Under the pieces are notes generated by a model. It was given only the letters and a program-made list of their open reading frames with translations. It was not told where the DNA came from and made no database searches. 28,961 nt of DNA from Fidelibacterota bacterium (lineage in GTDB: Bacteria > Bipolaricaulota > Bipolaricaulia > UBA7950 > UBA9294), in NCBI GenBank assembly GCA_024278395.1, contig JAJRTG010000081.1, positions 1-28,961 on the forward strand, in the 5' to 3' direction. The position numbers and the translations under genes were made by a program. Numbering within the stretch: position 1 is the first letter of the stretch; each line of letters opens with the position of its first letter. Shown one piece after another: positions 2,350-25,382 of the stretch.

Positions 2350-3300
2350 ATGAAGATAGCCGAAGTGGCGGCGCGCAGCCGCGCGATCATCGACGAAGTG
2401 AGCAAGGCGATCGTGGGGAAGGAGGAGGTCCTCGAGCTGGTCTTAACCGGGATCCTCGCCGGGGGACACATCCTGTTCGAGGACTATCCCGGCCTCGCCA
2501 AGACCCTGATCGCCCGCAGTTTCTCCCAGGTCCTGGGGATCGAGTTCAAGCGCATTCAGTTCACCCCCGATCTTCTCCCCGGGGACATCACCGGCTCGTA
2601 CATCTTCGATCGGGATAAGGAGGAGTTCGTCCTGTCCAAGGGGCCGATCTTCGCTCACCTGATCCTGGCCGATGAGATCAACCGGGCCACCCCGAAGACC
2701 CAGTCCGCCCTGCTCGAGGCGATGCAGGAGTTTCAGGTGACGATCGCGGGGGAGACCCTCCCCCTTCCGGCTCCGTTCATCGTGATCGCCACCCAGAACC
2801 CGATCGAGTATGAGGGGACGTTCCCACTCCCCGAGGCCCAGCTCGACCGGTTCATCATGCGGCTCAAGGTCGGGTATCCGGAGCCCGCCGAGGAGCTTGA
2901 GATCCTGAAGCGGAGGAGGGAAAGGAAGGCCGACGAGATCGTCCTCTCCCAGGTGACGAACGCCGATGATCTCCTCGAGATGAGGGCGGCGGTGGAGGAG
3001 GTGTTCATCGATCCGGATGTGGAGTCGTACATCGTGACGATCGTGACCCGGACGCGGGAGGACACGAACGTGTACGTGGGGGCGAGCCCGCGCGGCTCCC
3101 TCGCCCTGCTGAAGCTGACGCGGGCGTGGGCGGCCCTGCACGGGCGCGACTACGTCCTCCCCGACGACGTCAAGACCCTCGCCGTCCCCGCCCTCGTCCA
3201 CCGGCTCATCCTCAGCCCGGAGCTCTGGTCGAAGCGGATCGGCCCGCAGGACGTGGTGGAGAACATCCTCCGCTTCGTTCCGGTCCCCAAGGTCGATTGA
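2350..3300 (+). CDS. moxR: MoxR-family AAA+ ATPase
   Basis: GHILFEDYPGLAKT (Walker A variant), RIQFTPDLLPGDITG, LADEINRA (Walker B), ATQNPIEYEGTFPLPEAQLDRF, GASPRG. Confidence 0.95.
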   Translation: MKIAEVAARSRAIIDEVSKAIVGKEEVLELVLTGILAGGHILFEDYPGLAKTLIARSFSQVLGIEFKRIQFTPDLLPGDITGSYIFDRDKEEFVLSKGPIFAHLILADEINRATPKTQSALLEAMQEFQVTIAGETLPLPAPFIVIATQNPIEYEGTFPLPEAQLDRFIMRLKVGYPEPAEELEILKRRRERKADEIVLSQVTNADDLLEMRAAVEEVFIDPDVESYIVTIVTRTREDTNVYVGASPRGSLALLKLTRAWAALHGRDYVLPDDVKTLAVPALVHRLILSPELWSKRIGPQDVVENILRFVPVPKVD

Positions 3301-4586
3301 TGGAACATCGGGAGCGGTTGGCCGCCGCCGCGGGGATGACCGCGGCGCTAGTCGTGCTCGGGATCGTAGTCCACGACGGGCGCGTCCTTGGACTCGCCGT
3401 CCCCTACCTTGTCTACTTCGCCTGGATCGTCCTCTCCCGCCCCGCAAGCGGCGGGATCGAGGTGACGCGGCAGATTCACCCCGACCGCGTCCCGGCGGGG
3501 GAGGAGATCGAGGTGGTCCTGACGGTGGAGAACCACGGGACGGCCGTCCCGTTCTTCGGGCTGGAGGAGCTCCTCCCGGATGGACTCAACGTCATCGACG
3601 GGGAGACGACCGCGCTCGCCCCGCTCCCCGCCGGGGGGAGAATCTCGATCTCGTACACCATCGTCCCGCAGCGGGGGGAGTACGAGCTACCTTCCGTCCG
3701 GACCAAGCGCTGGGGACATGGGGCACCGGCACCGCTGGTGGAGGAGATCCGATGTCCGTCATCACTCCTCGTCCTCCCCCGGCCGGCCCCGCTCGCGGAG
3801 ATCGAGATCCGCCCCCGTCGTACTCTGGTCTACGCCGGGACGGTGAAGGCGGACGTCGGAGGGGCGGGGATCGACTTCTTCGGATGCCGCAACTACACCC
3901 CCGGGGACGATGTGCGCCGGATCAACTGGCGCGCCTACGCCCGGACCGGGCGGCTCGTGGTGAACGAGTACGAGCAGGAGAGGATCGCCGACGTGAACGT
4001 GATCCTCGACGCCCGTGCCCGTGCGCACCACCGCTCCTCCGACGGGGACACGTTCGAGCCGGCGGTGCACGCGGCGGCAAGCCTCGCCGTCCATTTCCTC
4101 GAACAAGGGAACCGCGTCGGTCTCCTCATCTACGGGGACGTCCTCGACTGGACCTATCCCGGGTTCGGACGCACCCAGCGGGAACGGATCCTCGATTCCC
4201 TCGCCGCCGCCCGTCCGGCGGACAAGGCGGTGTTCGAGGACCTGCGCTACATCCCGACGCGGCTCTTCCCCTCCCGCTCCCAGCTGGTGGTGGTGAGCCC
4301 GCTCGCCGGTGAGGAAGACGTGGAGATCCTCGGTCTGCTGCGGGCACGCGGCTATCACGTGATCCTCGTCTCCCCTGACCCGCTCGACCGCTGGATCGAG
4401 AGGAACACCGGAAAGACGGACGAGGGGAGCCTGCGGCTCGCGGCCCGGCTCATCCGGCTCGACCGCCGTGTCCTCCTCGACACCCTCGCCCGCATCGGGG
4501 TGGAGGTCGTAGATTGGCCGGTCGATGAGTCCTTCGCCCGCGCCGTCGATTGGGCCCTGTCCCGGCGCGGAAGGAGGTTCAGATGA
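3300..4586 (+). CDS. DUF58 domain-containing protein (428 aa) with N-terminal TM segments and an Ig-like beta-sandwich
   Basis: ATG overlaps the moxR TGA. DUF58 core 'DFFGCRNYTPGDDVRRINWRAYARTGRLVVNEYEQE...VILD'. Follows moxR as is usual for this family. Confidence 0.9.
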   Translation: MEHRERLAAAAGMTAALVVLGIVVHDGRVLGLAVPYLVYFAWIVLSRPASGGIEVTRQIHPDRVPAGEEIEVVLTVENHGTAVPFFGLEELLPDGLNVIDGETTALAPLPAGGRISISYTIVPQRGEYELPSVRTKRWGHGAPAPLVEEIRCPSSLLVLPRPAPLAEIEIRPRRTLVYAGTVKADVGGAGIDFFGCRNYTPGDDVRRINWRAYARTGRLVVNEYEQERIADVNVILDARARAHHRSSDGDTFEPAVHAAASLAVHFLEQGNRVGLLIYGDVLDWTYPGFGRTQRERILDSLAAARPADKAVFEDLRYIPTRLFPSRSQLVVVSPLAGEEDVEILGLLRARGYHVILVSPDPLDRWIERNTGKTDEGSLRLAARLIRLDRRVLLDTLARIGVEVVDWPVDESFARAVDWALSRRGRRFR

Positions 4587-5828: not shown

Positions 5829-7973
5829 CTAGGGGAGCGGATCGTGAACCGAGGTGTCGGTCAACCAATAAGCGATCAGATCCTGCATCGTCGCCAGATC
5901 AATCGTCGCGCCGTTCGTATACGGCACCTTATCGCCGGAGATCCAGAGCGAAACCGCATACTGAATCTGATCGAACGCGATCTGCGGCGGGAGGCAGAGA
6001 TCGATCGTGTCCTTTTCTGTATCCCAACGCGAGATGACCACCGCGACGGGGAGGTACGCCACGCGTGTCACCTTGTCCTCGCCGAGGACCATCTGCGAAA
6101 GCCGCGGGGAAGAACTCCCCACGATCCCGTTTATCGAGACCTGCTCCACGCCGGAGTCTGGAAGCGGCGTATCGGGAGCGGTCAGGGTGTAGGTGATCAC
6201 GCGTTGATCTCCGTCCTTCAACGTCTCCATGAAGAGCCAGTCGTGCGAGGCCTCCCGCAGGGTGGCGTTCCCGCTGTCCACGGCCTTGAACGTCCAACCG
6301 TCCGGGATATCCTCGTGCAGGCTCAACCCATGCACCTCGGTGTTGGCGGTGATCGTGACCGTCACCGTGACCACCCCGCCGGCGATCGTCTGATCATCCG
6401 GCAGACAGGTGTCGATCGTGCGCACCACGGTCACGCTCGGCAGGACATCGATCGTCTTCGTGTACGCCCCCTTCCCGCCGGCGTTGTCGGTAACGACGAG
6501 CGTCACCTGCACCTCGCCGGCCGCGGGGAAGGTATGGGTCACCTGCGGCGAGCCGGTGGTCTCGTCGAAGATCCCGTCGCCGTCGAAGTCCCACGCGTAA
6601 GAAACGATGCTTCCGTCGATATCGTTGGATCCGCTTGCGTCCAGCGTCGCCTCCACCCCACTGCGCGGTTGTTTCGGATCACAGGTGAACAGCGCCGTCG
6701 GATCGGTGTTGTGCACCGTAATCGTCTCCTCCGCCGCGGCGGAGCGTGCCCCGCGGTCGTCCACCACCACCAGGCTCACGGTGTAGGAACCGGGCTGGGT
6801 GAAGCGGTGCTGCGGATTCTGTTCGGTGCTCGTACCACCGTCCCCGAAATTCCACTCCCACGCTACAACTTCCCCGTCCGGGTCGCTCGACGCATCGGTG
6901 AACTCGACGACATCGCTCGACGAGGGGGCCTGCGGCGAGTACGTGAAACCAGCGACTGGAGGGACGTTGGGGGCGATCACCGAGATCTCAAGCGGGGTGA
7001 TGGGGATGGTGCTTGCCACTCCGCGGAAGTTGCTCAGGGTCACGGTCGAGCCTGCATCCGTCTCCCACTTCCCCGTCTTCTTCCCCTTGAGGATGACCGT
7101 GGCCGTCCAACGGGCACCGAGTCCGAGCGCCCCGATCCTCCAGGTTGCGGTCGTCGTGCCGTCCGGGTTCTGATCGATTCCCGCGGGGGTCGGAGAACCG
7201 CCTGCGTAGCTCAGTCCGGCGGGGATGACCTTCGTGATCGTGATGTCGGTCGCGGCCTGGCGGACGGCGAGGCGCTCCATGATCCGCCCCACCGTCGTAT
7301 CCTTCGGCCGGGGGAAGAAGAGCCCGCCGGTCTTGGCGGCGAACTCCTCGAGGAGATTCTTGTCTATGAGATTGCCGATCCCGACCGAGATGATCTTTAT
7401 CCCCAGCTCCTTGGCCACGTCCCCCTCCACCCCTGGATCACTCCCGACGTTGTTCTGCCCGTCGGTGAGGAGGATCTCACTGAGGACGGCGTTCGGTCGT
7501 CCGTGGGAGGTGAGCTCCTGGCGCGCGAGCCTGAGGGCGTCTCCGAACGCGGACTTCCCTCCCCGGACGAGGTCGGCGATCGCCTTCTTGACCTGTGTCC
7601 GATCATCGGTCAGCGGGATGACGAGGTTCGCCTGCGTGGCGAACGCGACCACTCCGACACGGTCGCCGTCCCCGAGCCTGTTCAGGATATCGAACGCCAT
7701 CTGCTTGGCGGTGTCGATCGCCGCTGTGGCCGAGACATCGATCACAAGCACGCAGTCGATCGGAAACCTGTCGGCCGGTCCCTTCCCCGTCAGGGTGAAG
7801 GTGAGGGTCGCGCTGTCCGGGCTTCCACCGCTCCCGGCGAGATAGATCTCATTCGGAGCAACGGACTGCTGCACCTGGACGTAATCGGCCCCCACAGCGG
7901 CCACCGTCACCAGAACCACCATCAAGAATACGGCGAGGGGAAGCCCCCCCGCCGCGTTGTACCTTCTTTTCAT
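5829..7973 (-). CDS. Secreted VWA + beta-sandwich + 2x PKD + beta-module + dockerin-like protein (714 aa)
   Basis: AGGAG RBS before ATG 7973, signal peptide, VWA (DCVLVIDVSAT...DRVGVVAF...ILLTDGQNN...IISVGIG), two PKD repeats (WEWNFGDG; YAWDFDGDG), C-terminal repeated modules. Confidence 0.88.
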   Translation of the reverse strand: MKRRYNAAGGLPLAVFLMVVLVTVAAVGADYVQVQQSVAPNEIYLAGSGGSPDSATLTFTLTGKGPADRFPIDCVLVIDVSATAAIDTAKQMAFDILNRLGDGDRVGVVAFATQANLVIPLTDDRTQVKKAIADLVRGGKSAFGDALRLARQELTSHGRPNAVLSEILLTDGQNNVGSDPGVEGDVAKELGIKIISVGIGNLIDKNLLEEFAAKTGGLFFPRPKDTTVGRIMERLAVRQAATDITITKVIPAGLSYAGGSPTPAGIDQNPDGTTTATWRIGALGLGARWTATVILKGKKTGKWETDAGSTVTLSNFRGVASTIPITPLEISVIAPNVPPVAGFTYSPQAPSSSDVVEFTDASSDPDGEVVAWEWNFGDGGTSTEQNPQHRFTQPGSYTVSLVVVDDRGARSAAAEETITVHNTDPTALFTCDPKQPRSGVEATLDASGSNDIDGSIVSYAWDFDGDGIFDETTGSPQVTHTFPAAGEVQVTLVVTDNAGGKGAYTKTIDVLPSVTVVRTIDTCLPDDQTIAGGVVTVTVTITANTEVHGLSLHEDIPDGWTFKAVDSGNATLREASHDWLFMETLKDGDQRVITYTLTAPDTPLPDSGVEQVSINGIVGSSSPRLSQMVLGEDKVTRVAYLPVAVVISRWDTEKDTIDLCLPPQIAFDQIQYAVSLWISGDKVPYTNGATIDLATMQDLIAYWLTDTSVHDPLP

Positions 7974-8008
7974 CGCGATCAACTCCTATCGTTCGCTCGT
8001 CCCATCAG

Positions 8009-10234
8009 CTACTTCCCCCCCTGGCACGGGAGCTTGCACGCCTCGCATGTGCCCGGCACCGCTCCCGGAAGAGGATCGCAGATATCCGTATTGGTGAGCC
8101 AGTAGGCGATGATCGCCTTGAGGGTCTCATAGTCGACCGTCTGACCGCCGGTGCGCGGGACAACTTCATCCTCAAGCCAGAAGGCGATCGCCCGCTGTAC
8201 CTGCTGGAAGGAGATCTTGTTCGACAGGTTGATGTCGATCGTGTCGTTGTCCACGTCCCAGCGCGAGATGGCGACGATCACCGAAAGGACGTCGGTCACA
8301 TCCACCGCCGTATCCCCGGTCACGGTCACGTTCTGACACGGGAGGGCGGAATCGACCACGCCGAACAGGTCGTTGGAGCTGACGTAGCAGGGGTTGTCCG
8401 CCGGCTGTTCGATCGCCTGCGCCTGCGGGACCTCCACCTGATAGATGATCGCCTTCGTCGTTCCCGCTGGAAGCTTGCTCGGGAAGACCCACTCCACCTT
8501 GGACGCCTTATAGGTGAACCCGGCATTGTCGATCGGAGTGACCTTCCAGCCGGTTGGGAGCTGCTCAGCGAGTCCAACGCCGTACAGATCCTGATCAGCG
8601 CTGATCTCCACCTTCACGGTGAACGTGTTCCCCGCCGGGTTGCCGTCCGGGCCGTAGTAGTTGAGGAGGACGTTGTTGCACGGAACCGGCGTGGCGATGG
8701 TGCGCACGGCGGTGATGTTCGCCTGCGGCACCGCCGGAAGCGGATTGTCGACCTCAGTGCAGGTGTACGCGTAGGCCGCCAGCTCCTTCATCGTCTCAAG
8801 ATCGATCGTCGCCCCCTGCGTCCACGGGACCGGCTCGTCATTGCGCCACATCTCGAGCGCCCGCTCCAGCTGGTTCGGGTCGATCTTCTGCGACAAGCGC
8901 AGGTCGATCGTGTCCTCGGTGTCATCCCCAACCCGCGGGACGAGGTGAGCTATCGCCGTCTTGATCGTCAATGCGTCCGTCACCTCGATGTCGCTGTCCC
9001 CCTCCACCGGGATGGAGAGTGATGGGGTCATCGCCTGGAACGTACCGGTAATCTTAAAGCAGGCGGGAAGCGTTGTTGCGATGAGCTGATCGCTCGTCGG
9101 CACGGTCACCTCGTAGGTGATAACCTTGGTCGTACCCGCCTTCACCTGATCGACGAACACCCACTGCACCGTAGCCCGCTTGAACGCGGCGCCGGCGTTT
9201 TCTATCGGCTTTATCTTCCACCCAACCGGGAGGTTCTCCTGCAACCCGACTCCGGCGAGGTCGGTCTCAGACTCGATCCGAACGACCACCTTGAACGTGC
9301 TTCCCGGCAGGGCGGCGACGGTTGAGATCGTCCGCGTCACCTTCACCGCCAGGGCGGATATATCGACGCTGCTCGACGTGCGCCCGGTCGCCCCGTCATT
9401 GTCGGTCACGCGAAGGGTGACGTTCTTAACCCCGCTCGTAGCGTAGGTGTGGGTGACAACGGGATCGGTGGTCTTCTGATCGAAGACCCCGTCGCCGTCG
9501 AAGTCCCATTCATAGCTGACGATCGACCCATCCGGATCGTGGGAAGCGCTGGCGTCGAACGTAACGGGCTCGTTGACGTGCGGCTTGTCCGGCGCGACGG
9601 AGAACGCGGCCACCGGCGGTTCGTTCGGGCTGCCGGAGATGATGATCGGATCGGTCAGATTGAGATCGATCTTCTGCGGAGCGGTCCGGTCACCGGAGAG
9701 GAACTTCACCGCAGTGATCCCGGAGGTGAACTGGGGATAGATGGTCAGCGAGAACTGATCACCAAGAGGCCCGAGGACCATCCCATCGGATTTCCCTTCA
9801 TCCCACGCCCAGGAAACCGTACCGGTCGGCGGGTTCAGCTCCCACGTCTCGCGGAAGTCGACCGGTCCGTCATCCTGCACCTCGAACCCGGCGCCGGCGG
9901 GGACCCCGGAAAGGGAGAACGTGACCGTTCCCGCCGTCCCGTTCGGCCCGCTCAAGAGGACAAACAGGGAGATCGCTCCGGTAGAGGTGTTCCGGTAGAG
10001 GAAGAGGACCGCAGTGTTCGCCTCCTCCAGTCCCGTGTTCGATTGGCTGTCGGTCAGGTTATAGAAACTGGCGGCGTCTCCTGGGCCGGCGAGGGGGAGA
10101 ATCTGTACCTTTTTATCCCCCTGACTGACCGTATAGTACCCTTCCCCTTGCGCGTAGACCGCCGCCTGAAAGATAAGTGCGACGAGTACCAGCAAGAGGG
10201 GAAGGCCATAAGGACCGACCTTAAGAAACTTCAT
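8009..10234 (-). CDS. Secreted PKD-domain protein with two tandem [beta-sandwich + dockerin-like] units and a Cys-rich tail (741 aa)
   Basis: AAGGAGG RBS before ATG 10234, signal peptide ending AVYA|Q, PKD (NEPPVAAF...YEWDFDGDG...HTY), internal duplication visible in the translation. Alternative in-frame start at 10333. Confidence 0.88.
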   Translation of the reverse strand: MKFLKVGPYGLPLLLVLVALIFQAAVYAQGEGYYTVSQGDKKVQILPLAGPGDAASFYNLTDSQSNTGLEEANTAVLFLYRNTSTGAISLFVLLSGPNGTAGTVTFSLSGVPAGAGFEVQDDGPVDFRETWELNPPTGTVSWAWDEGKSDGMVLGPLGDQFSLTIYPQFTSGITAVKFLSGDRTAPQKIDLNLTDPIIISGSPNEPPVAAFSVAPDKPHVNEPVTFDASASHDPDGSIVSYEWDFDGDGVFDQKTTDPVVTHTYATSGVKNVTLRVTDNDGATGRTSSSVDISALAVKVTRTISTVAALPGSTFKVVVRIESETDLAGVGLQENLPVGWKIKPIENAGAAFKRATVQWVFVDQVKAGTTKVITYEVTVPTSDQLIATTLPACFKITGTFQAMTPSLSIPVEGDSDIEVTDALTIKTAIAHLVPRVGDDTEDTIDLRLSQKIDPNQLERALEMWRNDEPVPWTQGATIDLETMKELAAYAYTCTEVDNPLPAVPQANITAVRTIATPVPCNNVLLNYYGPDGNPAGNTFTVKVEISADQDLYGVGLAEQLPTGWKVTPIDNAGFTYKASKVEWVFPSKLPAGTTKAIIYQVEVPQAQAIEQPADNPCYVSSNDLFGVVDSALPCQNVTVTGDTAVDVTDVLSVIVAISRWDVDNDTIDINLSNKISFQQVQRAIAFWLEDEVVPRTGGQTVDYETLKAIIAYWLTNTDICDPLPGAVPGTCEACKLPCQGGK

Positions 10235-10358
10235 TGCTACCTCCTTTATCCTTAGCATTCTCTGCGCAATTTTCTGTCTCATAAAAGAGTCCATACCCAC
10301 TCTATCATAAAATCCCGCTTTAGTCTGTAACATCGATCACGATCCTCCTTCCGGCGTC

Positions 10359-16289: not shown

Positions 16290-17825
16290 ATGGCACGATA
16301 CCTTCTCGGAGTGGACGTGGGCACACAGGGGACCAAGGGGGTGCTCGTCCGGACGGACGGGAGCATCGTCGGAACAGCGAGCGCGGCCTACGGGCTCCTC
16401 CACCCCCGACCGATGTGGGCCGAGCAATGGCCGGACGTGTGGTTGGATGCGACGGGCGCGGTCATCCGGAAGCTCCTGGACCGCCCCGGGGTCTCCCCGC
16501 AGGAGGTGGCCGGGGTGTGCATCAGCGGGCTGTACGGTGGAAGCGGGATCCCGCTCGATAAGGACATGAAACCGGTGCGGCCGTGCCTCATCTGGATGGA
16601 CCGGCGGGCGACGGCCGAAGTGGAGTGGATCACACGTAACGTCGACCTGGAGCGGTTGTTCACCGTGACCGGAAACTGGGTCGACAGCTACTTCGGCTAC
16701 CCCAAGATCCTGTGGATCAAGCGGAACGAGCCGGACAACTGGAAGCGGATTGCCCTGTTCCTCCCCCCGAACTCGTACATCAATTACCGCCTGACCGGCG
16801 AGATCGCGATCGACCACTCCTCGGCCGGGAACCTCGGCGGGCTGTACGACATCCGGGCGCACGCCTGGTCGGAGGAGACGGCCCAGGCGCTCGGGATCCC
16901 GCTCGAGCTGATGCCGGAGCGCATCGTCCCCTCCGAAGCGGTGATCGGCGAGGTGACCGCGGAGGGATCGCGCCTCACCGGGTTGGCCCCCGGGACCCCG
17001 GTCCTCGGGGGCGGGGTGGACGCCCCGATGGCGACCTTCACCGCCGGGGCGCTCGACCGCGGGGACAACGTCGCCATGATAGGGACATCCACGTGCTGGG
17101 GGATCATCCACACCGGGGGGAACTTCGCCAAGGAGCTGGTCTCCATGCCGCACGTGATCGACGCCGAGCACCGCACCTACACCTGGGGGGGATCGGCGAC
17201 CTCCGGCGCGCTCGCCAGCTGGTTCCGGGACGCGGTGCGCGGGGGGACGGATTCGTTCCGCGATCTCGACCGAGCGGCGGCGGACGTGCCGCCGGGAAGC
17301 CAGGGGCTGATCGCGCTTCCCTACTTCATGGGCGAGCGGGCGCCGCTGTGGGACCCGGGGGCGCGCGGGGCGTTCGTCGGGTTGACGCTGTCCCATACCG
17401 CGGGGCACCTGTTCCGGGCGCTCCTCGAGGCGACCGCCTACTCCCTGCGCCATGCGATCGAGACCGGGGTGGAGATCGGACTCCCGCTCGCCCCGGGGAC
17501 GACGGTTGTGGGCGGGGTGGCTAAATCCGAGCTGTGGCTATCGATCCTCGCCGACGTCATCGGCCGGCCAGTCCGCACCCTCGCCACCGAGGGGATCGGC
17601 GCCCCGCTCGGGGACGCGTTCCTCGTCGGGCTAGCCGCCGGCGAGTTCGCGGACTACGGCGAGATTCGGGGATGGATCAATTACAACAACACGGTTGCAC
17701 CCGACCCCGTCCGAAAGACGGTCTACGATCGCTATTACCGGCTGTACCGCGACCTCTACCGCGACCTGCGCGCCGACCTCCACGCGCTCTCGGAGCTGTC
17801 CGCGGATCAGGCGAACACGCGGTAG
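16290..17825 (+). CDS. FGGY-family carbohydrate kinase (xylulokinase/ribulokinase-like), 511 aa
   Basis: LLGVDVGTQGTK (phosphate-1 motif), WAEQ, CLIWMDRR, GGGVDAPMA, LPYFMGERAPLWDPGARGAF, ALLEATAY. AAGGAGG/GAGGT RBS before ATG 16290. Confidence 0.93.
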   Translation: MARYLLGVDVGTQGTKGVLVRTDGSIVGTASAAYGLLHPRPMWAEQWPDVWLDATGAVIRKLLDRPGVSPQEVAGVCISGLYGGSGIPLDKDMKPVRPCLIWMDRRATAEVEWITRNVDLERLFTVTGNWVDSYFGYPKILWIKRNEPDNWKRIALFLPPNSYINYRLTGEIAIDHSSAGNLGGLYDIRAHAWSEETAQALGIPLELMPERIVPSEAVIGEVTAEGSRLTGLAPGTPVLGGGVDAPMATFTAGALDRGDNVAMIGTSTCWGIIHTGGNFAKELVSMPHVIDAEHRTYTWGGSATSGALASWFRDAVRGGTDSFRDLDRAAADVPPGSQGLIALPYFMGERAPLWDPGARGAFVGLTLSHTAGHLFRALLEATAYSLRHAIETGVEIGLPLAPGTTVVGGVAKSELWLSILADVIGRPVRTLATEGIGAPLGDAFLVGLAAGEFADYGEIRGWINYNNTVAPDPVRKTVYDRYYRLYRDLYRDLRADLHALSELSADQANTR

Positions 17826-19225
17826 CGGATCCCGAGCATCCGCGCCGTCCAGATCAACTCCTCGGTCCAGTCCCCGTAGGCGGCGTGGATGTGGTTCGAG
17901 TCGTACTCGGCCAGGAACTCCTCCGGCCCGACCTCAAACCGGGTGAACGCGTGCGGCCACTCGATCTGGGTCGCCTGAGCCTTGCGCTCGGCCTCGTCAC
18001 GCGGCAGCTCGATGAACTCGCCCGGGACGATCGCCAGCCAGTACTCCCCTCTGCGGCGGGCGAGGCGGGCGAGGGTCACCTTCCCCGGAGCGGCGATGTG
18101 GCGGACCGACGCCCCCCCGGCCGGGAAGTAGAACCCCTGCGGGTAGAACTCGACCTGGGGGAGGTTGTCGTCGGGGTCATATGACCGCCCGGCGAAGTAG
18201 GTCGGGTGGTTCCCGGAGTTGCACAGATCGAACACGCCGAGTTCGGCGTCGTAGTGGCGCAGATCGGCGAACATGACCGGGGTTCCGGTGATGTGCTTCA
18301 TGATCTCCATGGTGAGCGCCCCGTCCATATCGGCCTCGGTGGCGGTGACGATCGGGGCCTTCGGCCCGTTCCAGTCGTAGGGATCGTTCAGGAACGCCTC
18401 GGTCACGTCCATGGTGACGAAGTTGTCGGTGAGCTCGGGCTGTCCCTTGATCCCGAGGAAGTCGAGCCGCTTCTCCTTCGCCATCTCGCGCACTGCGATA
18501 TAGCTTCTGATCTGGAGCTTCAGCTTCTCCGGGGTGAGCTGCTTTCCGTCGTAGCGGATCTTCCCCACCTTCTCCGTAAGCCAGGTGAACGCGCGCTTCA
18601 CCTCGTCGTCCGGAGCCTCACCGGACCGCCGCACGATCTCGTACTGGTCGATGTGCTCGACGTCGATCCCGAACAGGCTCATCCACTGGTCGGTGTTGGC
18701 CACCGCGGTGTACATCCCCATCGGCCGGCCGCCGAACAGGCCGTAGGTCTCACCCCGCAGCCGGGCCACGGTCGAACCGGCGCGGATGAACGCCATCACC
18801 CGGCGCAGCACGCGCTCGTCCCCGATGTCGCCGGAGATGCGGCCGTGCAGCGCCCCGATCTGATCGAGCGCGCCGGCGGAGGCGAGCATCCCGACCATCC
18901 CCGGATAGCGGGGGTTGATGTTGGAGAACAGCAAGAACGGACCTGGAGCGAACCGGGAGGCGATCGCCGCCAGGTGGGGGAAGCTCCACACCGCGAAGTT
19001 GAACACCGTGAGCTCGCAGCCCTCGTTCGCCAGCCGCTGCGCCTCGTTTCTCGCCAGCTCCGCGGTCCAGACGATCTCCCGGGCCACTACCGGTTCCACT
19101 TCGCCGGTCGCCTCCAGCGCCGCCGCGAGCTTTTCCTGAAACTCCAGGTTTAGTCCCTCCAGCTCCTTGTGCACCGACTCCCGTCCGTCGGAGAAGGTCA
19201 GGATCCCCACCTTGCGCTTATCCAT
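17807..19225 (-). CDS. L-fucose/D-arabinose isomerase-family protein
   Basis: VGILTFSDGR, GGRPMGMYTA, GIKGQPELTD, ATEADMDGALTM, DLCNSG and H-AF/H-H-YGD resemble the FucI/AraA isomerase family. AAGGAGG RBS. Confidence 0.85.
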   Translation of the reverse strand: MDKRKVGILTFSDGRESVHKELEGLNLEFQEKLAAALEATGEVEPVVAREIVWTAELARNEAQRLANEGCELTVFNFAVWSFPHLAAIASRFAPGPFLLFSNINPRYPGMVGMLASAGALDQIGALHGRISGDIGDERVLRRVMAFIRAGSTVARLRGETYGLFGGRPMGMYTAVANTDQWMSLFGIDVEHIDQYEIVRRSGEAPDDEVKRAFTWLTEKVGKIRYDGKQLTPEKLKLQIRSYIAVREMAKEKRLDFLGIKGQPELTDNFVTMDVTEAFLNDPYDWNGPKAPIVTATEADMDGALTMEIMKHITGTPVMFADLRHYDAELGVFDLCNSGNHPTYFAGRSYDPDDNLPQVEFYPQGFYFPAGGASVRHIAAPGKVTLARLARRRGEYWLAIVPGEFIELPRDEAERKAQATQIEWPHAFTRFEVGPEEFLAEYDSNHIHAAYGDWTEELIWTARMLGIRYRVFA

Positions 19226-19260
19226 CTTCAGCTCGTCCTCCTTTCATATCGTGAAAATAG

Positions 19261-20295
19261 TCAAGTCACCCTGCGGATCTCCTCTACCTCCGCCTCCGCG
19301 ATCTCAACGTGCCTGATGGCGGCCCGGCGGTAAGTATAGGTGATGTGCAGGGTACCGTCCCGCCCCTGGATGACCGCCGGGTAGCTGTACTCCCCCGGTC
19401 CCTCCTCGATGGTTACCGACCACGGCCAGCTCTCCCCGTCATCGGGTGAGAACGAGACAACCAGCGGGCTGCGCTTCCCCCACCGGTCGAACCCGACCGG
19501 CATCCGGGCCGGCCAGCGCTCGTCGAGCCCCGGCGGGACAGGGGGCAGACCGACTGGGTTGTGCACCAGCGCCAACAGACCGGAACGGAGCCGGACCATG
19601 TCGATTCCGCTGTTGTTGTTCGGAAGCGGCGTTGGGGCCGGAACGGTCCACGTCTCGCCGAGATCGCGGGACTCGCTCCGGTAGATGTATCCCTCCTGAC
19701 TGCGCATGTAGGCGAGAAGCGCTCCGTCACCCAGACGGACCACCGTCGGCTGGATCAGGTGCGCTCCGGCCACGCGGCCGAGGTCGCCGATGATCTCCCA
19801 GGTCCCCCCGTCGTCCGTGGAGCGGAGGAACGCGGCGCTCCAGGACCGCTCCCACTCGACCGGGAGAATCCACACCCCGTCCCCGTGGAACGGCTTGGTC
19901 CTCCCCAGCAGTCCCTTGGTCTCCACCAGGAGCTCGAGGTCGGTCCAGCTCTTGCCGCCGTCGAGGCTCCGCTTGAAGAACAGATAAGTGTCGCCGCTGC
20001 ACCACCGCCCGTAGTTCACCCCGACGACGAGCCACACCTCGCCGGAGCGCGGGCCGAGGAACACCCGGGGGTTGGCCGGAGCGCGGCGCGGGACGTCCAC
20101 CCACACCGCGGGGGCACTCCATTTCTTTCTAGTGACATTGAATCTAGTTCCCAACACCACCGAATCCGGGGAGCCTTCCCGCATCCCGGCGTAGCAGCAC
20201 GCGAGGAGGTCGCCGTCTTCCAGCTCGCAGACGCTCGAGGCGTGCATGCTCGGGTATTCCGGGGACGGCTCGATGCAGAATCGACGCTTCATCAT
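19261..20295 (-). CDS. Cytoplasmic BNR-repeat sialidase-like protein (predicted neuraminidase family)
   Basis: Four Asp-boxes (SLDGGKSW, STDDGGTW, SRDLGETW, SPDDGESW), HASS..., IQPTV, EYSYP. No signal peptide. ATG overlaps the upstream permease TGA. Confidence 0.87.
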   Translation of the reverse strand: MMKRRFCIEPSPEYPSMHASSVCELEDGDLLACCYAGMREGSPDSVVLGTRFNVTRKKWSAPAVWVDVPRRAPANPRVFLGPRSGEVWLVVGVNYGRWCSGDTYLFFKRSLDGGKSWTDLELLVETKGLLGRTKPFHGDGVWILPVEWERSWSAAFLRSTDDGGTWEIIGDLGRVAGAHLIQPTVVRLGDGALLAYMRSQEGYIYRSESRDLGETWTVPAPTPLPNNNSGIDMVRLRSGLLALVHNPVGLPPVPPGLDERWPARMPVGFDRWGKRSPLVVSFSPDDGESWPWSVTIEEGPGEYSYPAVIQGRDGTLHITYTYRRAAIRHVEIAEAEVEEIRRVT

Positions 20296-21125
20296 CCCTT
20301 CGACCCCGATCCGGCCAGGGTGAACCCGCGGATGATCTGGCGGCGCAGCAGGAGGAAGACGAACAGCGAGGGGAGAGAAGCCATGAACGCACCGGCGAGG
20401 ATCAGCCCGTAATCGATCTCGAACGCCCCCTGCAGGAGCTTCAACCCGACCGGGAGCGTCACCATCTGGGATTTGCGCAGAACGATCATCGACCAGAAGA
20501 ACTCGTTCCACGCGAAGTTGAACATGTACACCCCGAACGCGGCGAACACCGGCTTGGAGACGGGGATGATCACCCGCGTCAGAATCCCGAAGCTGGAGCA
20601 CCCGTCGATCCGGGCCGCGTCCTCGAGCTCCTTGGGAATGTTGATGAAGAACTGGCGCAGGAGGAACACCCCGATCGGCATCGCGATCATCGGCAGGGCT
20701 ACCCCCTGGTAGGTATTGAGGAACCCGAACTTGGTCATCGTGAAGAAAAGCGGAATCACGTTCACCTGCCAGGGGAGGAGCATGAAGACGAGTAGAATCA
20801 TGAACAGCGTGTCCCTCCCCCGCCAGTGGAGCCGGGCGAAGGAGAACGCGGCAAGGGTGGAGACGATGAGAGAGCCGAGCGTCACTGAGCTCGCCACGAT
20901 GACACTGTTCAGGACCCAGCGTCCGAACGGCCACTGGGCGAACAGCCGCTGTACGTTCTCCAACGTGAAATGGGAAGGGATCCAGGAGGGAGGAATGCTC
21001 AGGATCTCCGGCCGCGGCTTGAACGCGGTATCGGCCATCCACAGGATCGGAATGATCCACGCAAACGCGATCCCGTACATGATGACATAAGGAAGAAACC
21101 GCTTGGTCGCTCGTAATGCCTTCAT
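20292..21125 (-). CDS. Carbohydrate ABC transporter permease (MalG/UgpE-like)
   Basis: Six TM helices, EAA loop 'IPKELEDAARIDGCSS', FNFAWNEFFW. Confidence 0.95.
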   Translation of the reverse strand: MKALRATKRFLPYVIMYGIAFAWIIPILWMADTAFKPRPEILSIPPSWIPSHFTLENVQRLFAQWPFGRWVLNSVIVASSVTLGSLIVSTLAAFSFARLHWRGRDTLFMILLVFMLLPWQVNVIPLFFTMTKFGFLNTYQGVALPMIAMPIGVFLLRQFFINIPKELEDAARIDGCSSFGILTRVIIPVSKPVFAAFGVYMFNFAWNEFFWSMIVLRKSQMVTLPVGLKLLQGAFEIDYGLILAGAFMASLPSLFVFLLLRRQIIRGFTLAGSGSKG

Positions 21126-22024
21126 TGCAACTCCGATTTAAGCCCGAGGAACTTCACGCCGATCAGCGTGAGGAGCAGGATCATGAGCAGGAGGATGACC
21201 CCGGCTGCAGCCGCCTTCCCCACCTGGAAGTAATCGAACCCGACCCGGTACAGGTAGAGGGCCAGCACCTCCGTCGATCGACCGGGCCCGCCGTCCGTCA
21301 TCAGGAGCACCTGTCCGAAGGTGCGGAACGCCGAGATGATGGTAAGTACCAAAGCGAACAGAAGCGACGGCTTGATCAACGGCAAGATGATGTGCAGAAA
21401 CTGATGCCGCGGCTTAGCGCCATCGATCGCCGCCGCCTCAAACAGATCCTGCGGGATCTCCTCCAACCCGGCCTGCAGGACCACCATCCGATAGCCAGCG
21501 AGCCACCAGGCGGTGGTGAACGCAATGGCCGGAAGTGCCCATGTGGTACTGGTAAGGAAAACCGGGGCCGACGGGACTACTGAGCTGAGCGTGTGCTGCA
21601 ACAGCCCGAAGTCACGGTCGAGCAGCCATTTCCAGACAATCGCCACGATGGAAACGGTGAGCAGGTACGGGAAGAAGAGGATCCCCTGCACCGCGGTCGT
21701 TCCCCGGCGGGACTTCCCCCATCCCCACATCATGAGCGCGAACAGGAAGCCAAACCCTATGATGAGGGGGATCGTCATCGCGGCGAATTTGAACGTGTTT
21801 CCGAACGCGTTCCAGAACCGCGGTTCATGGAAGAGCGTGATGTAGTTCGCCAGCCCGACGAACTTCGAGCCGCGCATCGGGTTCCAGTCGAACAGGCTGA
21901 TGTAGATTCCGTATCCCACCGGCCAGGCGAGGAAGACCGCCCACAGGCTGACGAACGGGAGGACGTACAGCACCCCCTCCAGTCCTTGGTGCCTATACAA
22001 GAATTCGCCTAATCTTTTGCCCAT
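21122..22024 (-). CDS. Carbohydrate ABC transporter permease (MalF/UgpA-like)
   Basis: FVGLANY, EAA loop 'IPQDLFEAAAIDGA', ILLPLIKP-like segment, GGPGRST. Confidence 0.95.
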   Translation of the reverse strand: MGKRLGEFLYRHQGLEGVLYVLPFVSLWAVFLAWPVGYGIYISLFDWNPMRGSKFVGLANYITLFHEPRFWNAFGNTFKFAAMTIPLIIGFGFLFALMMWGWGKSRRGTTAVQGILFFPYLLTVSIVAIVWKWLLDRDFGLLQHTLSSVVPSAPVFLTSTTWALPAIAFTTAWWLAGYRMVVLQAGLEEIPQDLFEAAAIDGAKPRHQFLHIILPLIKPSLLFALVLTIISAFRTFGQVLLMTDGGPGRSTEVLALYLYRVGFDYFQVGKAAAAGVILLLMILLLTLIGVKFLGLKSELQ

Positions 22025-22032
22025 TTTAATAA

Positions 22033-22061
22033 GCGGGCGGGGCCGGCCGGCCTCCGCCCGC
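22033..22061 (-). other. Strong intercistronic stem-loop between the binding-protein and permease genes
   Basis: GCGGGCGG(A)GGCC-GGCC-GGCC CCGCCCGC, a 12-bp stem with one bulge, followed by TTATT. Confidence 0.7.
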
Positions 22062-22073
22062 GTCGCTCCTTAT

Positions 22074-23342
22074 TTATTTACCCTGTAGGATCTTGTTACA
22101 CTCCTTCTCCGCGTTGGCGAGAGCCTCCTGCGGGGTGATCTTCCCGTTCACCGCAAGCTCGATCTGGGCCTGAATGGCGTGCTCCAGCTCGGATCCGTGC
22201 GGGTTGTTGATCGGGAAGTGTACCAGCCCCTCCTGGGCCATCTCGTTCAACCACTTGCCCGACTTGATCCAGTAGTCGGACGCGAGGAGATCGGGGTTCT
22301 TCGCCTCGGGCTTGTACGCGGTGATGTGCCCGCCATACATCGTCCAGATGTGGGAATGCTCCGAGATGTACTTGATCACCTCGGCCGCGGCCATGTACAC
22401 CTCTCTGGGCGTTCCCTTCGGCTGAACCGGGATCACGATCTGGTGGCTGTTCCCCCAGGTGTATGGAGTGCCGAAGAAGCTCGGCATCTTCATGTAGCCC
22501 CAGTTTACCCCGCTGTTCTTCGCAGTCCCGTAGTACCAGTTCCCGGCGATGAGCATCCCGAGCTCCCCCGCGGCGAACTGGTCGTAGCCGTTGGTCCCAG
22601 GCTTGTTCCAGCCGAAGTCGTTGAAGATGTCAACGAGGAACTGGAGCGCCAGGAGCCCCTTCGGGTTGTTGAACGTGGCATGCGTGTAGTCCTTATCAAA
22701 CAGCTGGCCGCCCATCTGCCAGAAGAAGACGTACCACGCACGGCGGAGCTTGCGCGGGGCGGCGTCCTCCCCCGGATGGAACGCGTAGTATCCGGCGTCC
22801 TTGATCTTGTCGCAGGCGGTCATGAACTCGTCCAACGTCTGGGGCGGGTTGTTCGGATCGAGCCCGGCCTTCTCGAAGATGTCCTTATTGTACCAGATCC
22901 CCCAACCGTGGGTATCGAGCGGAATCAGGTAGTGGTGACCGTTCAGCTCGCCGGCCTTCCAGTTAGCGGATACGTAGTCGTCCGGATTGAACCCCGCCAT
23001 CTGAAGGATGTTCCCCACCGGGGAATCGTCGAGCGGAGTGAGGTAGTCGGCCATCTCCACGAGCTTGTTGGTGTGGCAGATCCCGATCTGCGGCGCGTTC
23101 CCGGCGATCACCGAGAGACGAAGCTGCGCGTAGTAATCGGTCCACCCGCCCTGGGTGAGCTCCACCTGGATGTCGGTGTGCTCTGCGTTGAACTGGTTGA
23201 TGATCTGCTCCATCGCCTTGGCGTCGGCCTCGTGGAACAGCGTGTTGAACGTGATCTTGATCGGCTGAGCCGCCAACGTCTGCAGCCCCACCACAAACAG
23301 CAATCCTACAAGCAGAATCCCAAGTTTCCAAGCTTTATGCAT
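22074..23342 (-). CDS. Sugar ABC transporter substrate-binding protein
   Basis: Signal peptide (TLAA|QP) without a lipobox, 'IWYNKDIFEKAGLDPNNPPQT', FAAGELGMLIAGNW. Confidence 0.94.
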   Translation of the reverse strand: MHKAWKLGILLVGLLFVVGLQTLAAQPIKITFNTLFHEADAKAMEQIINQFNAEHTDIQVELTQGGWTDYYAQLRLSVIAGNAPQIGICHTNKLVEMADYLTPLDDSPVGNILQMAGFNPDDYVSANWKAGELNGHHYLIPLDTHGWGIWYNKDIFEKAGLDPNNPPQTLDEFMTACDKIKDAGYYAFHPGEDAAPRKLRRAWYVFFWQMGGQLFDKDYTHATFNNPKGLLALQFLVDIFNDFGWNKPGTNGYDQFAAGELGMLIAGNWYYGTAKNSGVNWGYMKMPSFFGTPYTWGNSHQIVIPVQPKGTPREVYMAAAEVIKYISEHSHIWTMYGGHITAYKPEAKNPDLLASDYWIKSGKWLNEMAQEGLVHFPINNPHGSELEHAIQAQIELAVNGKITPQEALANAEKECNKILQGK

Positions 23343-23389
23343 GATTTAGATGCACCTCCCTTTCATTTTCGGTTCCGATCGCCCAGATG

Positions 23390-24322
23390 CTATTGCTCCT
23401 TGTTACCACCCCCCTTCTCCATCAACTGTGCCGCTCGTTTTTCTATCGAACCAAGCTGCACCTCGAGGGATGCAACCTCCTCGGTCGGTGCAGGACGGAG
23501 GGGAGGGACAGGAGGACCGACCTCCCATCCCATGAGCGTCAATGCCTGCTTGATGGTGGGAACGTTACCGCGGCGAGTGGCGCGACACAGCTCGATTATC
23601 GACATCTGGAGTTTCTTCCCTTGTTCGTGGTCACCGCGTTGCGCAGCCCGGTAGAGGGCCGTGTAGAGCGTCGGAAAGACGTTCGCCCCGCTTGAGACAA
23701 GCCCGCTCCCACCCATCGTGAGGAGCGGTAGCCCCATCTCGTCCTTGCCGATCAAAAGGTGAACCTCGTCGGCCAACTCGAGGTACTCTTCCCACGCCTC
23801 CCAGTCCCCCCGACTGATCTTGGCTCCGACGATGTTTTGGGCATCCGCGTGCAAAGCATTGAGCAAGTCAGCATCCAACGGGTTTCCCGTGGTCGACGGG
23901 ATGTCGTAAAGGAACAGCGGCAAGTCCCCGATCGCCGATGCGATTTCCAAGTAGTGCGCGCGCAATTCCTCTTTTGTGAACCGGTATCGACACGGAGGAG
24001 CGACCGCGACTGCCGCCGCTCCGATCCTCGCGGCGTGCCGCGAGAGGGCGCAGGCGGCGGCGGCGCGATCATGTCCGGTGTGCACGATGACGGGAATGCT
24101 CCCCGCGGCGGTCTCCAACACGGCCTCGGCGAACTCCTGCCGCTCGCCGACGGAAAGGAGCGTCCCCTCGCCGGTGGTCCCCAGTATGTACAGCCCCGTG
24201 ACCCCGGCTTCGACGAACCTATCGATAAGCCCCGGCAGAACCTCGGGGTCGGGCGTCCGTCTTTCGGGATCCCACGGGGTGACCATCGCCACCCACACAC
24301 CGCTGAAGTTCGCTGCCTTCAT
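23390..24322 (-). CDS. DHDPS/N-acetylneuraminate lyase-family class I aldolase (probably not a true DapA)
   Basis: GTTGEG, YDIPSTTG (lacks the DapA-typical Arg of YNVPSRTG), Schiff-base Lys in IVGAKISRGD. Located inside a sugar operon. Confidence 0.9.
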   Translation of the reverse strand: MKAANFSGVWVAMVTPWDPERRTPDPEVLPGLIDRFVEAGVTGLYILGTTGEGTLLSVGERQEFAEAVLETAAGSIPVIVHTGHDRAAAACALSRHAARIGAAAVAVAPPCRYRFTKEELRAHYLEIASAIGDLPLFLYDIPSTTGNPLDADLLNALHADAQNIVGAKISRGDWEAWEEYLELADEVHLLIGKDEMGLPLLTMGGSGLVSSGANVFPTLYTALYRAAQRGDHEQGKKLQMSIIELCRATRRGNVPTIKQALTLMGWEVGPPVPPLRPAPTEEVASLEVQLGSIEKRAAQLMEKGGGNKEQ

Positions 24323-25314
24323 GTCGACCCTCGCACTGTGAGCGTCACCGGCACACGAACCTCCTTGACCGCCCCTTCCCCACCGCCCTCGAACCGGGCG
24401 AGCAGGATTTCCATCGCGATTTTCCCGATCTCATACGGATTTTGTGTGACTGCTGTGAGCGGCGGTTGAAAGAGCTCTCCCAAATCCAGGTCGTCGAAGC
24501 TTACAACCGCCATGGTCTGCGGAACGGCGATCCTCCGCTGCGCGAGGGTCTTGAGCACCCCCACGGTCATAAGGTTGTTCGTGCTGAAGATCGCGGTGGG
24601 CGGATTGGGGAGGGAGAGGAACTTCTCCGTAGCCCTCTGTCCCCCCTCAACCCGGTACCCACCGTAGGCGGCGAGCTCACCGGAAAAGTGAAGGCCCGCC
24701 TCATCGAGTGCCTTCCGGTATCCGCCCAGGCGCTCCTCGGTGGTCGTCGCCCCCTCGATGCCGAGGATGATTCCGATCCGCCGGTGACCCCGTTCGATCA
24801 GGTGTTTGGTCGCCTGGTAGCCGCCGTCGATGTTATCGGAGAGGACGGCGTCGGCCTCGATCCCCTTGGCGCGCCGGTCGATGAAGACGAACGGCGTCTT
24901 CCAACGCGGAAGCTCCTGCACCGCTTCGCTCGATCCGTCTCCCACCGGAGAGATGAGAAGCCCATCCATCTGTCGGCGACGGAGGAGCCGCACGTAGCGG
25001 TCCTCCTTCTGGGTCGATTCATCGCTGTTGCACACGATCAGGGAATAACCGGCCTCGATCGCCGCATCCTCCGCTCCGCGCACAAGCGTGGCAAAGAATG
25101 GGTTCGTGATATCCGAGACCACCGCCCCGATCGCATGCGTCCTACGGGTGCGGAGCGACTGGGCGACAGCGTTGGGGTGGTAATCGAGGGCCTCCATCGT
25201 CCGCCGCACCCGCGCCGCCGTCTCCGGCGCCACCGGACGGGTCCCGTTGATCACATGCGAGACCGTTGCTACAGAGACCCCAGCTGCACGTGCCACATCC
25301 CTTATCGTGGCCAT
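24319..25314 (-). CDS. LacI-family transcriptional regulator
   Basis: ATIRDVARAAGVSVATVSHVING HTH, YHPNAVAQSL hinge, periplasmic-binding-protein-like effector domain (PTAIFSTNN, VVSFDD). Confidence 0.96.
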   Translation of the reverse strand: MATIRDVARAAGVSVATVSHVINGTRPVAPETAARVRRTMEALDYHPNAVAQSLRTRRTHAIGAVVSDITNPFFATLVRGAEDAAIEAGYSLIVCNSDESTQKEDRYVRLLRRRQMDGLLISPVGDGSSEAVQELPRWKTPFVFIDRRAKGIEADAVLSDNIDGGYQATKHLIERGHRRIGIILGIEGATTTEERLGGYRKALDEAGLHFSGELAAYGGYRVEGGQRATEKFLSLPNPPTAIFSTNNLMTVGVLKTLAQRRIAVPQTMAVVSFDDLDLGELFQPPLTAVTQNPYEIGKIAMEILLARFEGGGEGAVKEVRVPVTLTVRGST

Positions 25315-25332
25315 CCACCCCTCCATAGTAAT

Positions 25333-25353
25333 CGTTTACCGTAAACGTTTTAC
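25333..25353. promoter_or_regulatory. Candidate LacI operator(s)
   Basis: GTAAACGTTTTAC with the central AAACGTTT typical of LacI-family operators (25341-25353), overlapping a second palindrome CGTTTAC-C-GTAAACG (25333-25347). Sits at the predicted transcription start. Confidence 0.7.
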
Positions 25354-25382
25354 AGCATACAGCCACACCCCGGGTTTGTCAA
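25354..25382 (-). promoter_or_regulatory. sigma70 promoter of the LacI sugar operon
   Basis: TTGACA (25382-25377), 17-bp spacer, TATGCT (25359-25354). Confidence 0.78.

Follow-up and report, generated by a model that had tools for sequence, protein, structure and literature searches.

A cluster of eight genes at positions 16290-25382 of the Bipolaricaulota contig JAJRTG010000081.1 (assembly GCA_024278395.1; the 28,961 nt analysed, with ca. 65% G+C, are referred to here as the window) raises the question of which substrate would call for a sugar importer, a sialidase-fold protein, an aldolase, a fucose isomerase-like enzyme and a sugar kinase, all of them next to a LacI-family repressor. The answer that we favour, with rather more confidence than doubt, is that the operon would import Kdo (3-deoxy-D-manno-octulosonate, a sugar acid of eight carbons), cleave it to pyruvate and D-arabinose, and deliver the pentose to central metabolism. 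A binding protein and two permeases of the CUT1 (carbohydrate uptake transporter 1) type would import the substrate, with energy from a shared ATPase whose gene lies outside the operon. A cytoplasmic propeller protein of the BNR_2 family would then supply free Kdo, most likely by cleaving a Kdo ketoside, and a Schiff-base aldolase of the DHDPS/NAL family would split it into pyruvate and D-arabinose (EC 4.1.2.23). A short FucI-family isomerase would turn D-arabinose into D-ribulose and, finally, a XylB-like FGGY kinase would produce D-ribulose 5-phosphate, to be used in the pentose phosphate pathway. Every substrate named in this scheme, the operator described below and the role given to the BNR_2 protein are predictions; the observations behind them are the genes present, the structure of the operon, the folds of the proteins with their conserved catalytic residues, and the synteny and co-occurrence of the genes.

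The eight genes are found where the initial annotation had put them. Seven lie on the minus strand, in the order LacI-family repressor (24319-25326), aldolase (23390-24322), substrate-binding protein (22074-23342), permease 1 (21122-22024), permease 2 (20292-21125), BNR_2 protein (19261-20295) and isomerase (17807-19225). The repressor and aldolase genes, the two permease genes, and permease 2 and the BNR_2 gene overlap by 4 bp (the stop codon of permease 2 overlaps the start codon of the BNR_2 gene), and the remaining gaps measure 35-49 bp, so that the seven genes most probably form one transcription unit running from the repressor to the isomerase. The kinase gene (16290-17825, plus strand) is convergent with this unit and overlaps the 3' end of the isomerase gene by 19 bp. 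Domains were called with Pfam and equivalogs with the curated cut-offs of NCBIfam; none of the proteins of the locus scored above a curated equivalog cut-off. The gene calls of the operon contain no ATP-binding cassette (ABC) ATPase, and the pathway is to that extent not the complete one that had been claimed.

Synteny argues that the eight-gene arrangement is not due to chance. It is repeated in more than 12 independent loci from metagenome-assembled genomes carrying the labels Bipolaricaulota, Acetothermia, Fraserbacteria, Caldisericota and 'Thermotogae'. A distant version (L050) has the isomerase, kinase, aldolase, binding protein, two permeases and BNR protein in a different order and at 29-62% identity, accompanied by a PfkB kinase and a LacI gene. 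Co-occurrence was examined in 151 genomes of the phylum, among which related genomes are not independent, so the counts are descriptive. The BNR gene was present in 16 of these genomes. An orthologue of the aldolase (at least 49% identity) was detected in 15 of the 16, always within a few kb of the BNR gene, and not once in the 135 genomes that lack BNR; in the sixteenth, a DHDPS gene of 31% identity is located 3.3 kb from the BNR gene. The isomerase (at least 77% identity) was found in the same 15 genomes and in seven others. Within the phylum the aldolase and the BNR protein co-occur strictly, and the isomerase extends beyond them.

The aldolase belongs to the DHDPS superfamily (Pfam PF00701, 192 bits over residues 5-289) and has class I (Schiff-base) features, with the G-x-T-G-E motif (GTTGE at 48-52), the catalytic Tyr (Y139) and the Schiff-base Lys (K168) assigned by motif position. 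Its scores lie below the cut-offs for both DapA (TIGR00674, 153.8 against 206.15) and NanA (NF003164, 128.6 against 281; TIGR00683, 102.5 against 382). The stretch that we take to hold the substrate Arg of DapA reads Y139-D-I-P-S-T-T, without an Arg after YxxP. Moreover, DapB (searched as DapB_C) was not found in the genome to which the contig belongs; this genome is 79% complete, which makes provisional this and all the other genome-wide absences mentioned below. Genome G109 has an orthologue of the aldolase (77% identity) and a separate DapA-like gene with 32% identity to it. For these reasons a housekeeping DapA was rejected, in keeping with the non-DapA assignment made at the outset, and the protein is better described as a probable specialised lyase of the NAL (N-acetylneuraminate lyase) type.

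The same data bear on the possibility that the functions at this locus are simply juxtaposed. The operon would then be a (D-arabino-)oligosaccharide system, with a BNR protein of glycoside hydrolase (GH) clan GH-E acting on a neutral sugar, next to a DapA or some unrelated lyase. Clan GH-E does include GH93 exo-arabinanases, the aldolase is the sole DHDPS-family gene found in its genome, and two structural relatives of the binding protein, 7bvt and 4qrz, are the same two reported for the binding protein of a D-arabinan locus. Nevertheless, an aldolase that accompanies the BNR gene so faithfully, always within a few kb, and that coexists in G109 with a separate DapA-like gene, does not look like an unrelated neighbour, and the scores, the missing Arg and the lack of a detectable DapB speak against DapA. 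Besides, by alignment and motif the BNR protein keeps two Arg and a Tyr from the site where sialidases bind the carboxylate. We consider this explanation very unlikely.

If the lyase acts on a 2-keto-3-deoxy acid, the next question is which one. Kdo is the natural ulosonic acid that gives D-arabinose on aldol cleavage, and both KdsB and the KpsF type of arabinose-5-phosphate isomerase are specific for Kdo. The cleavage itself, EC 4.1.2.23, is a long-known activity (Ghalambor and Heath 1966, cited in PMC12199768), and the literature searched assigns no gene to it. Homologues of the BNR protein with 40-46% identity are present in Anaerolineae (L013-L015), in a Spirochaete (L008) and in metagenomic contigs (L025, L112), in clusters composed of DHDPS, ABC transporter, a ca. 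400-aa protein, CTP_transf_3 and BNR genes. The cytidylyltransferase of L013 is KdsB, i.e., a CMP-Kdo synthetase, by a wide margin (305.8 against a cut-off of 193; TIGR00466, 221.9 against 155), and its single-SIS protein falls in the KpsF/GutQ family of arabinose-5-phosphate isomerases (208.6 against 203.7). L013-L015 all have a KpsF/GutQ protein of this kind and carry in addition a ribokinase-family kinase, the L-fucose mutarotase FucU and YhcH, the kinase and FucU of L013 being above their curated cut-offs. Together, FucU, the pentose kinase and the arabinose-5-phosphate isomerase would make up a second route, not homologous to the one proposed here, from D-arabinose to ribulose 5-phosphate. 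In the genome of our contig KdsB and LpxC were not found and KdsA gave no match above cut-off, and any Kdo used by this organism would therefore be foreign. Lipopolysaccharide (LPS) from necromass and the pectin rhamnogalacturonan II (RG-II), both mentioned as sources in the initial annotation, are both compatible with these data.

Two further observations were made on these related clusters. The ca. 400-aa protein (no Pfam domain, a faint match to the GSU2086 domain) and the KdsB-type CMP-Kdo synthetase form a gene pair directly 5' of the BNR_2 gene (L013:8056-10016, L008:6886-8837, L025:8056-10004 and L112:8037-10004, and likewise in L014 and L015). After the cluster of L013, at L013:11736-14571, there are LarE-, LarB- and LarC-like genes (PP-loop, AIR carboxylase and Ni insertion, respectively), which would make the nickel-pincer cofactor and hint at a racemase or epimerase of the LarA type nearby.

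The second half of the proposed pathway concerns the aldose. The isomerase (472 aa) has the three FucI domains above cut-off (Pfam Fucose_iso_N1, N2 and C), and its best solved relative is the D-arabinose isomerase 3a9r. In the alignment with 1fui and 3a9r, its motifs ATE297AD and FAD321LR fall on ATEND and FADVR, and SNH445 on ANH, so that E297, D321 and H445, which we take to be the metal and catalytic residues of FucI, are all retained. The protein is thus a member of the L-fucose isomerase superfamily and, at the same time, is far from the FucI equivalogs (NF008220, 106.9 against 775; TIGR01089, 91.7 against 850), whose full length is ca. 590 aa. Sulfoquinovose isomerase (SftI) was also considered and rejected, with 50 bits against a cut-off of 700. 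The kinase (Pfam FGGY_N and FGGY_C) comes closest to XylB (TIGR01312, 323.5 against 380.25), the other FGGY equivalogs being far below their cut-offs, and it is invariably paired with the isomerase in the syntenic loci, either convergent or co-directional. We propose that it may be a D-ribulokinase. As it resembles XylB and not FucK, and there is no FucA-type aldolase present, phosphorylation would probably take place at C5.

A pointer to D-arabinose comes from loci in which the isomerase and kinase pair occurs without the BNR and aldolase genes. It is then found beside DUF2961/GH172 genes, homologues of which were present in 38 of the fetched loci, with the adjoining isomerases 52-83% identical to ours. 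Several Actinobacteria (Spirillospora, Nonomuraea, Actinoallomurus and others) have a LacI gene followed by the isomerase (52-56% identity), DUF2961, a CUT2 ABC transporter and an FGGY kinase. Closer to home, a locus of a sister Bipolaricaulota (L032:1768-12972) has, in this order, a LacI repressor (70% identical), a CUT1 ABC transporter, DUF2961 (293 bits), two further genes, the isomerase (83%) and the kinase (68%). Ahead of the isomerase and kinase of this locus, GH172, an AP_endonuc_2 TIM-barrel protein and a URO-D-like gene stand in the place of the BNR and aldolase genes, which looks like module swapping under one regulator. GH172 was not found in the genome of our contig. The characterised GH172 enzymes include exo-alpha-D-arabinofuranosidases, and in D-arabinan loci the use of D-arabinose is ascribed to a predicted fucose isomerase or to a pair of isomerase and kinase (PMC10115798, PMC10509167). 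In Dysgonomonas gadei grown on D-arabinan a predicted fucose isomerase ranked first in abundance among the carbohydrate-active proteins (PMC10115798, PMC10509167). With two different upstream modules feeding the same downstream module under one kind of repressor, D-arabinose is the simplest common product.

Taken together, these associations with Kdo-specific (KdsB, KpsF/GutQ) and D-arabinose-linked (GH172) families also allow us to weigh other acids, i.e., deaminoneuraminic acid (Kdn), sialic acid, 3-deoxy-D-lyxo-heptulosaric acid (Dha), or an analogue, 6-deoxy or L-configured, that would release an aldose equally suited to a FucI-type enzyme, for instance L-fucose or L-galactose. The BNR protein shares its fold with GH33 sialidases and KDNases, the aldolase lies at about the same distance from NanA as from DapA, FucI-family enzymes are known to take L-fucose and D-arabinose alike, and the specificities of the enzymes at the locus are predicted ones. 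On the other hand, a sialic acid would require N-acetylmannosamine enzymes, and the window has no nanE, no ROK-type (NanK-like) gene and no NagA-like gene, as had been stated in the initial annotation, and lacks a NagB-like gene as well; NanE and the AGE epimerase family (GlcNAc_2-epim) were not found in the 79%-complete genome either. A 2-acetamido aldose could not be used by an aldose-ketose isomerase, and Kdn would yield D-mannose, which is not a FucI-type substrate. The KdsB and KpsF-type genes of the homologous clusters are Kdo-specific and the GH172 link favours D-arabinose, and no natural ulosonic acid built from L-fucose or L-galactose is known to us. A different acid seems to us quite unlikely.

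The comparison with the nan clusters for sialic acid use is nevertheless instructive, since both systems follow one plan, with a sialidase-fold protein, an importer, a Schiff-base lyase of the DHDPS/NAL type that gives pyruvate and an aldose, and enzymes that return the aldose to metabolism, all under one repressor. Here, however, NanE, NanK, NagA and NagB give way to an aldose-ketose isomerase and an FGGY kinase, the lyase stays under the cut-offs for NanA, the propeller, a cytoplasmic one, carries Gln in place of the catalytic Glu and, by motif, His in place of the FRIP Arg, and the related clusters have KdsB and KpsF, which are Kdo and not sialic acid enzymes. The locus works like a nan operon without being one. 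The D-arabinan loci (the polysaccharide utilization locus of Microbacterium arabinogalactanolyticum and PUL42 of D. gadei) share with it the downstream FucI-family isomerase and sugar kinase, which would lead from D-arabinose to D-ribulose 5-phosphate and both of which are themselves only predicted in the published work, but act on D-arabinan with GH172, GH183 and GH116, whereas the locus described here has BNR_2 and an aldolase (PMC10509167, PMC10115798). In the D-arabinose catabolism of E. coli (FucI, FucK, FucA) the common chemistry is the conversion of D-arabinose to D-ribulose by FucI; the present system differs by its short isomerase, its XylB-like kinase and the lack of a FucA-type aldolase.

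The least secure step of the pathway is the one assigned to the BNR protein (Pfam BNR_2, 191.6 bits; no NCBIfam model matched). About its fold there is little doubt. The AlphaFold model (mean predicted local distance difference test, pLDDT, of 94.3) is a six-bladed propeller, nearly all of its top 50 Foldseek matches are GH33 sialidases (template modelling, TM, scores of 0.70-0.78), with GH33 matches of TM 0.75-0.78 at sequence identities of 13-19%, and there are four Asp-boxes of the GH33 propeller type, S-x-D-x-G-x-(T/S)-W, at residues 113, 162, 212 and 286. The ESM Atlas returned only generic 'sialidase family' clusters. The catalytic residues were mapped by hidden Markov model alignment to 4x47 and 4x6k and by motif. 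By profile alignment, Y308 corresponds to the nucleophile Tyr of sialidases and R201 to one Arg of the triad, and R278 is invariant at the place where, by motif, the second Arg would be expected. The column of the catalytic Glu is occupied by Gln185-Pro186, a pair kept in 12 of 14 distant members, so the Tyr/Glu pair of sialidases is incomplete; an outgroup of 25% identity retains the Glu in this column, which supports the assignment of Gln185 to it. There is no RIP motif either; in the N-terminal strand, (C/M)-H-A-(S/P), the invariant His21 falls by motif at the site of the FRIP Arg. This His/Gln signature is conserved down to 31% identity. The protein has no signal peptide here and is leaderless in all the loci; we describe it as a cytoplasmic propeller of a non-canonical subfamily of the sialidase fold.

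It is conceivable, by analogy with what NanM and YhcH, or the 2,7-anhydro-Neu5Ac route, do when sialic acid is used, that the pathway is the one proposed and that BNR_2 is not a glycosidase at all, acting instead on monomeric Kdo by hydration of anhydro-Kdo, opening of a lactone, or an anomerisation or ring-opening that would supply the aldolase. The replaced Glu and Arg, their persistence to 31% identity next to an outgroup that has kept the Glu, and the cytoplasmic location would all fit such a role, and the best sequence matches in the PDB are intramolecular trans-sialidases or anhydrosialidases. The company kept by BNR_2 in the Lachnospiraceae points the same way. In Blautia intestinalis, Faecalicatena contorta and a Ruminococcus (L018-L021) it is found with an IclR regulator, a DHDPS gene and TctCBA, a carboxylate transporter of the tripartite tricarboxylate transporter (TTT) type, which suggests the import of a monomeric acid and leaves room for a function other than that of a glycosidase. 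Against this, by alignment and motif two Arg and the Tyr remain, along with Asp47 as a candidate acid, any of the other invariant acids E43, E150, E152 and E305 could stand in for the Glu, CUT1 importers like the one in our locus are typically carriers of oligosaccharides, and no enzyme that produces anhydro-Kdo is known to us. That this fold can support Kdo chemistry is also shown by KdhA, the sialidase-like catalytic subunit of KdhAB in Francisella, Helicobacter and Legionella, which is a true Kdo hydrolase acting on a Kdo ketoside and resembles in this the role proposed for BNR_2 (PMC3573668). KdhAB, however, is an inner-membrane enzyme of LPS remodelling with a small membrane partner, encoded outside catabolic operons (PMC3573668), whereas our BNR protein is soluble, leaderless and has no partner gene. 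All in all, we regard a role on the monomer as unlikely, though not negligible.

In two of these Lachnospiraceae loci (L018 and L019, the latter being that of Blautia intestinalis, with a cluster spanning L019:3273-14960), a FucI_C isomerase and an FGGY kinase scoring with XylB are located ca. 4 kb upstream of the BNR_2 cluster, and a formate-tetrahydrofolate ligase gene lies between the two modules. Another variant, L111:985-12220, has PfkB and DHDPS genes divergent from a series comprising DeoR, an Fe-ADH and a Zn-ADH (alcohol dehydrogenases), a binding protein, two permeases, BNR_2 and a 351-aa SIS protein; the presence of two dehydrogenases hints at an altered route or substrate.

Returning to the import and aldol cleavage of Kdo as the explanation of the operon, several points weigh against it. 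The substrate assignments draw on the gene neighbourhood of loci whose BNR proteins are only 31-46% identical to ours. The changes of Glu to Gln and of Arg to His in the BNR protein argue against the textbook retaining mechanism of sialidases, and a ketosidase is therefore not assured. TTT transporters are the usual carriers of monomeric carboxylates, and their presence in homologous clusters leaves the need for a glycosidase unexplained. The same can be said of a KdsB gene, with its constant ca. 400-aa partner, within an otherwise catabolic cluster. GH172 also holds alpha-D-fructofuranosidases (PMC8605356), and the DUF2961 neighbours are assigned at the level of the family. To this one has to add the provisional nature of the absences from an incomplete genome, and the lack of any copy of the palindrome described below upstream of the kinase gene, either by matches with up to three mismatches or by searches for inverted repeats. 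The route from Kdo to D-arabinose, D-ribulose and ribulose phosphate put forward in the initial annotation has thus gained comparative support from GH172, from the KdsB, KpsF, kinase and FucU genes and from the co-occurrence of the genes; the hydrolysis of a Kdo glycoside that was part of it finds no support in a BNR protein without the canonical Glu and FRIP Arg, nor in clusters equipped with TTT transporters.

In the control region a sigma-70-like promoter, by pattern match only (TTGACA, a spacer of 17 nt and TATGCT; 10 of 12 positions in a consensus scan), lies at 25354-25382 on the minus strand. Just downstream of its -10 box, at 25333-25347, there is a perfect 7-1-7 palindrome, CGTTTAC-C-GTAAACG, a putative operator at which the repressor would bind over the transcription start. 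It is the sole perfect copy in the window, where 0.29 matches with three or fewer mismatches would be expected by chance. The same palindrome is found directly 5' of the LacI gene in L001, L002, L006, L033, L034, L036, L041, L043 and L045, and also 5' of LacI in the GH172-type locus L032, which has two copies of it. Repressor and operator are common to loci of the L032 type, and this makes D-arabinose or D-ribulose an attractive candidate for the effector. The repressor itself (Pfam LacI and Peripla_BP_1/3) probably starts at the second ATG, at 25314, which is preceded by GGAGG; it scores below every NCBIfam equivalog cut-off and is 66-86% identical in the syntenic loci. The genome also has a second LacI paralogue, 52% identical to that of the operon, on a contig of 5 kb (G000:C23:2199-3182). 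The importer is less informative. The binding protein (Pfam SBP_bac_1 and SBP_bac_8, with an N-terminal signal peptide) has oligosaccharide binders as nearest solved structures (7bvt, 5ci5 and 4qrz), i.e., it is of the generic CUT1 type and says little about the ligand. The permeases (both Pfam BPD_transp_1) are MalF/UgpA-like (permease 1, with all its NCBIfam matches below cut-off) and MalG/UgpE-like (permease 2).

Elsewhere in the window there are housekeeping genes (AspRS, PurA, IleRS and a beta-CASP RNase), together with a MoxR/DUF58 set and genes for secreted VWA-PKD proteins. Genes for DUF4129, MoxR-type AAA_3 ATPase and DUF58 proteins stand side by side at 945-4586, and they are followed at 5829-10333, on the minus strand, by genes for secreted VWA/PKD/DUF11 proteins.

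Kdo is a component of nearly all LPS, of many capsules, of pectin RG-II and of green-algal walls, and represents a large and universal pool of carbon; the genes for its breakdown are undescribed in the literature that we searched. It is possible, although we would call it doubtful rather than probable, that this locus represents the first genetically defined pathway of Kdo catabolism, that it provides the gene for the 60-year-old orphan activity EC 4.1.2.23, and that it includes a widespread His/Gln subfamily of BNR proteins with a non-classical Kdo chemistry, perhaps the processing of monomeric or anhydro forms, ranging from subsurface Bipolaricaulota to Lachnospiraceae of the human gut. The altered catalytic residues of this subfamily are of mechanistic interest in themselves. 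If true, the pathway would give names to thousands of genes that are probably mis-annotated as 'sialidase family' or 'DapA', and it would be a source of thermostable aldolases for the synthesis of ulosonic acids. It would also account for the recycling of Gram-negative necromass, or of plant and algal Kdo, by subsurface and gut organisms that have no LPS.

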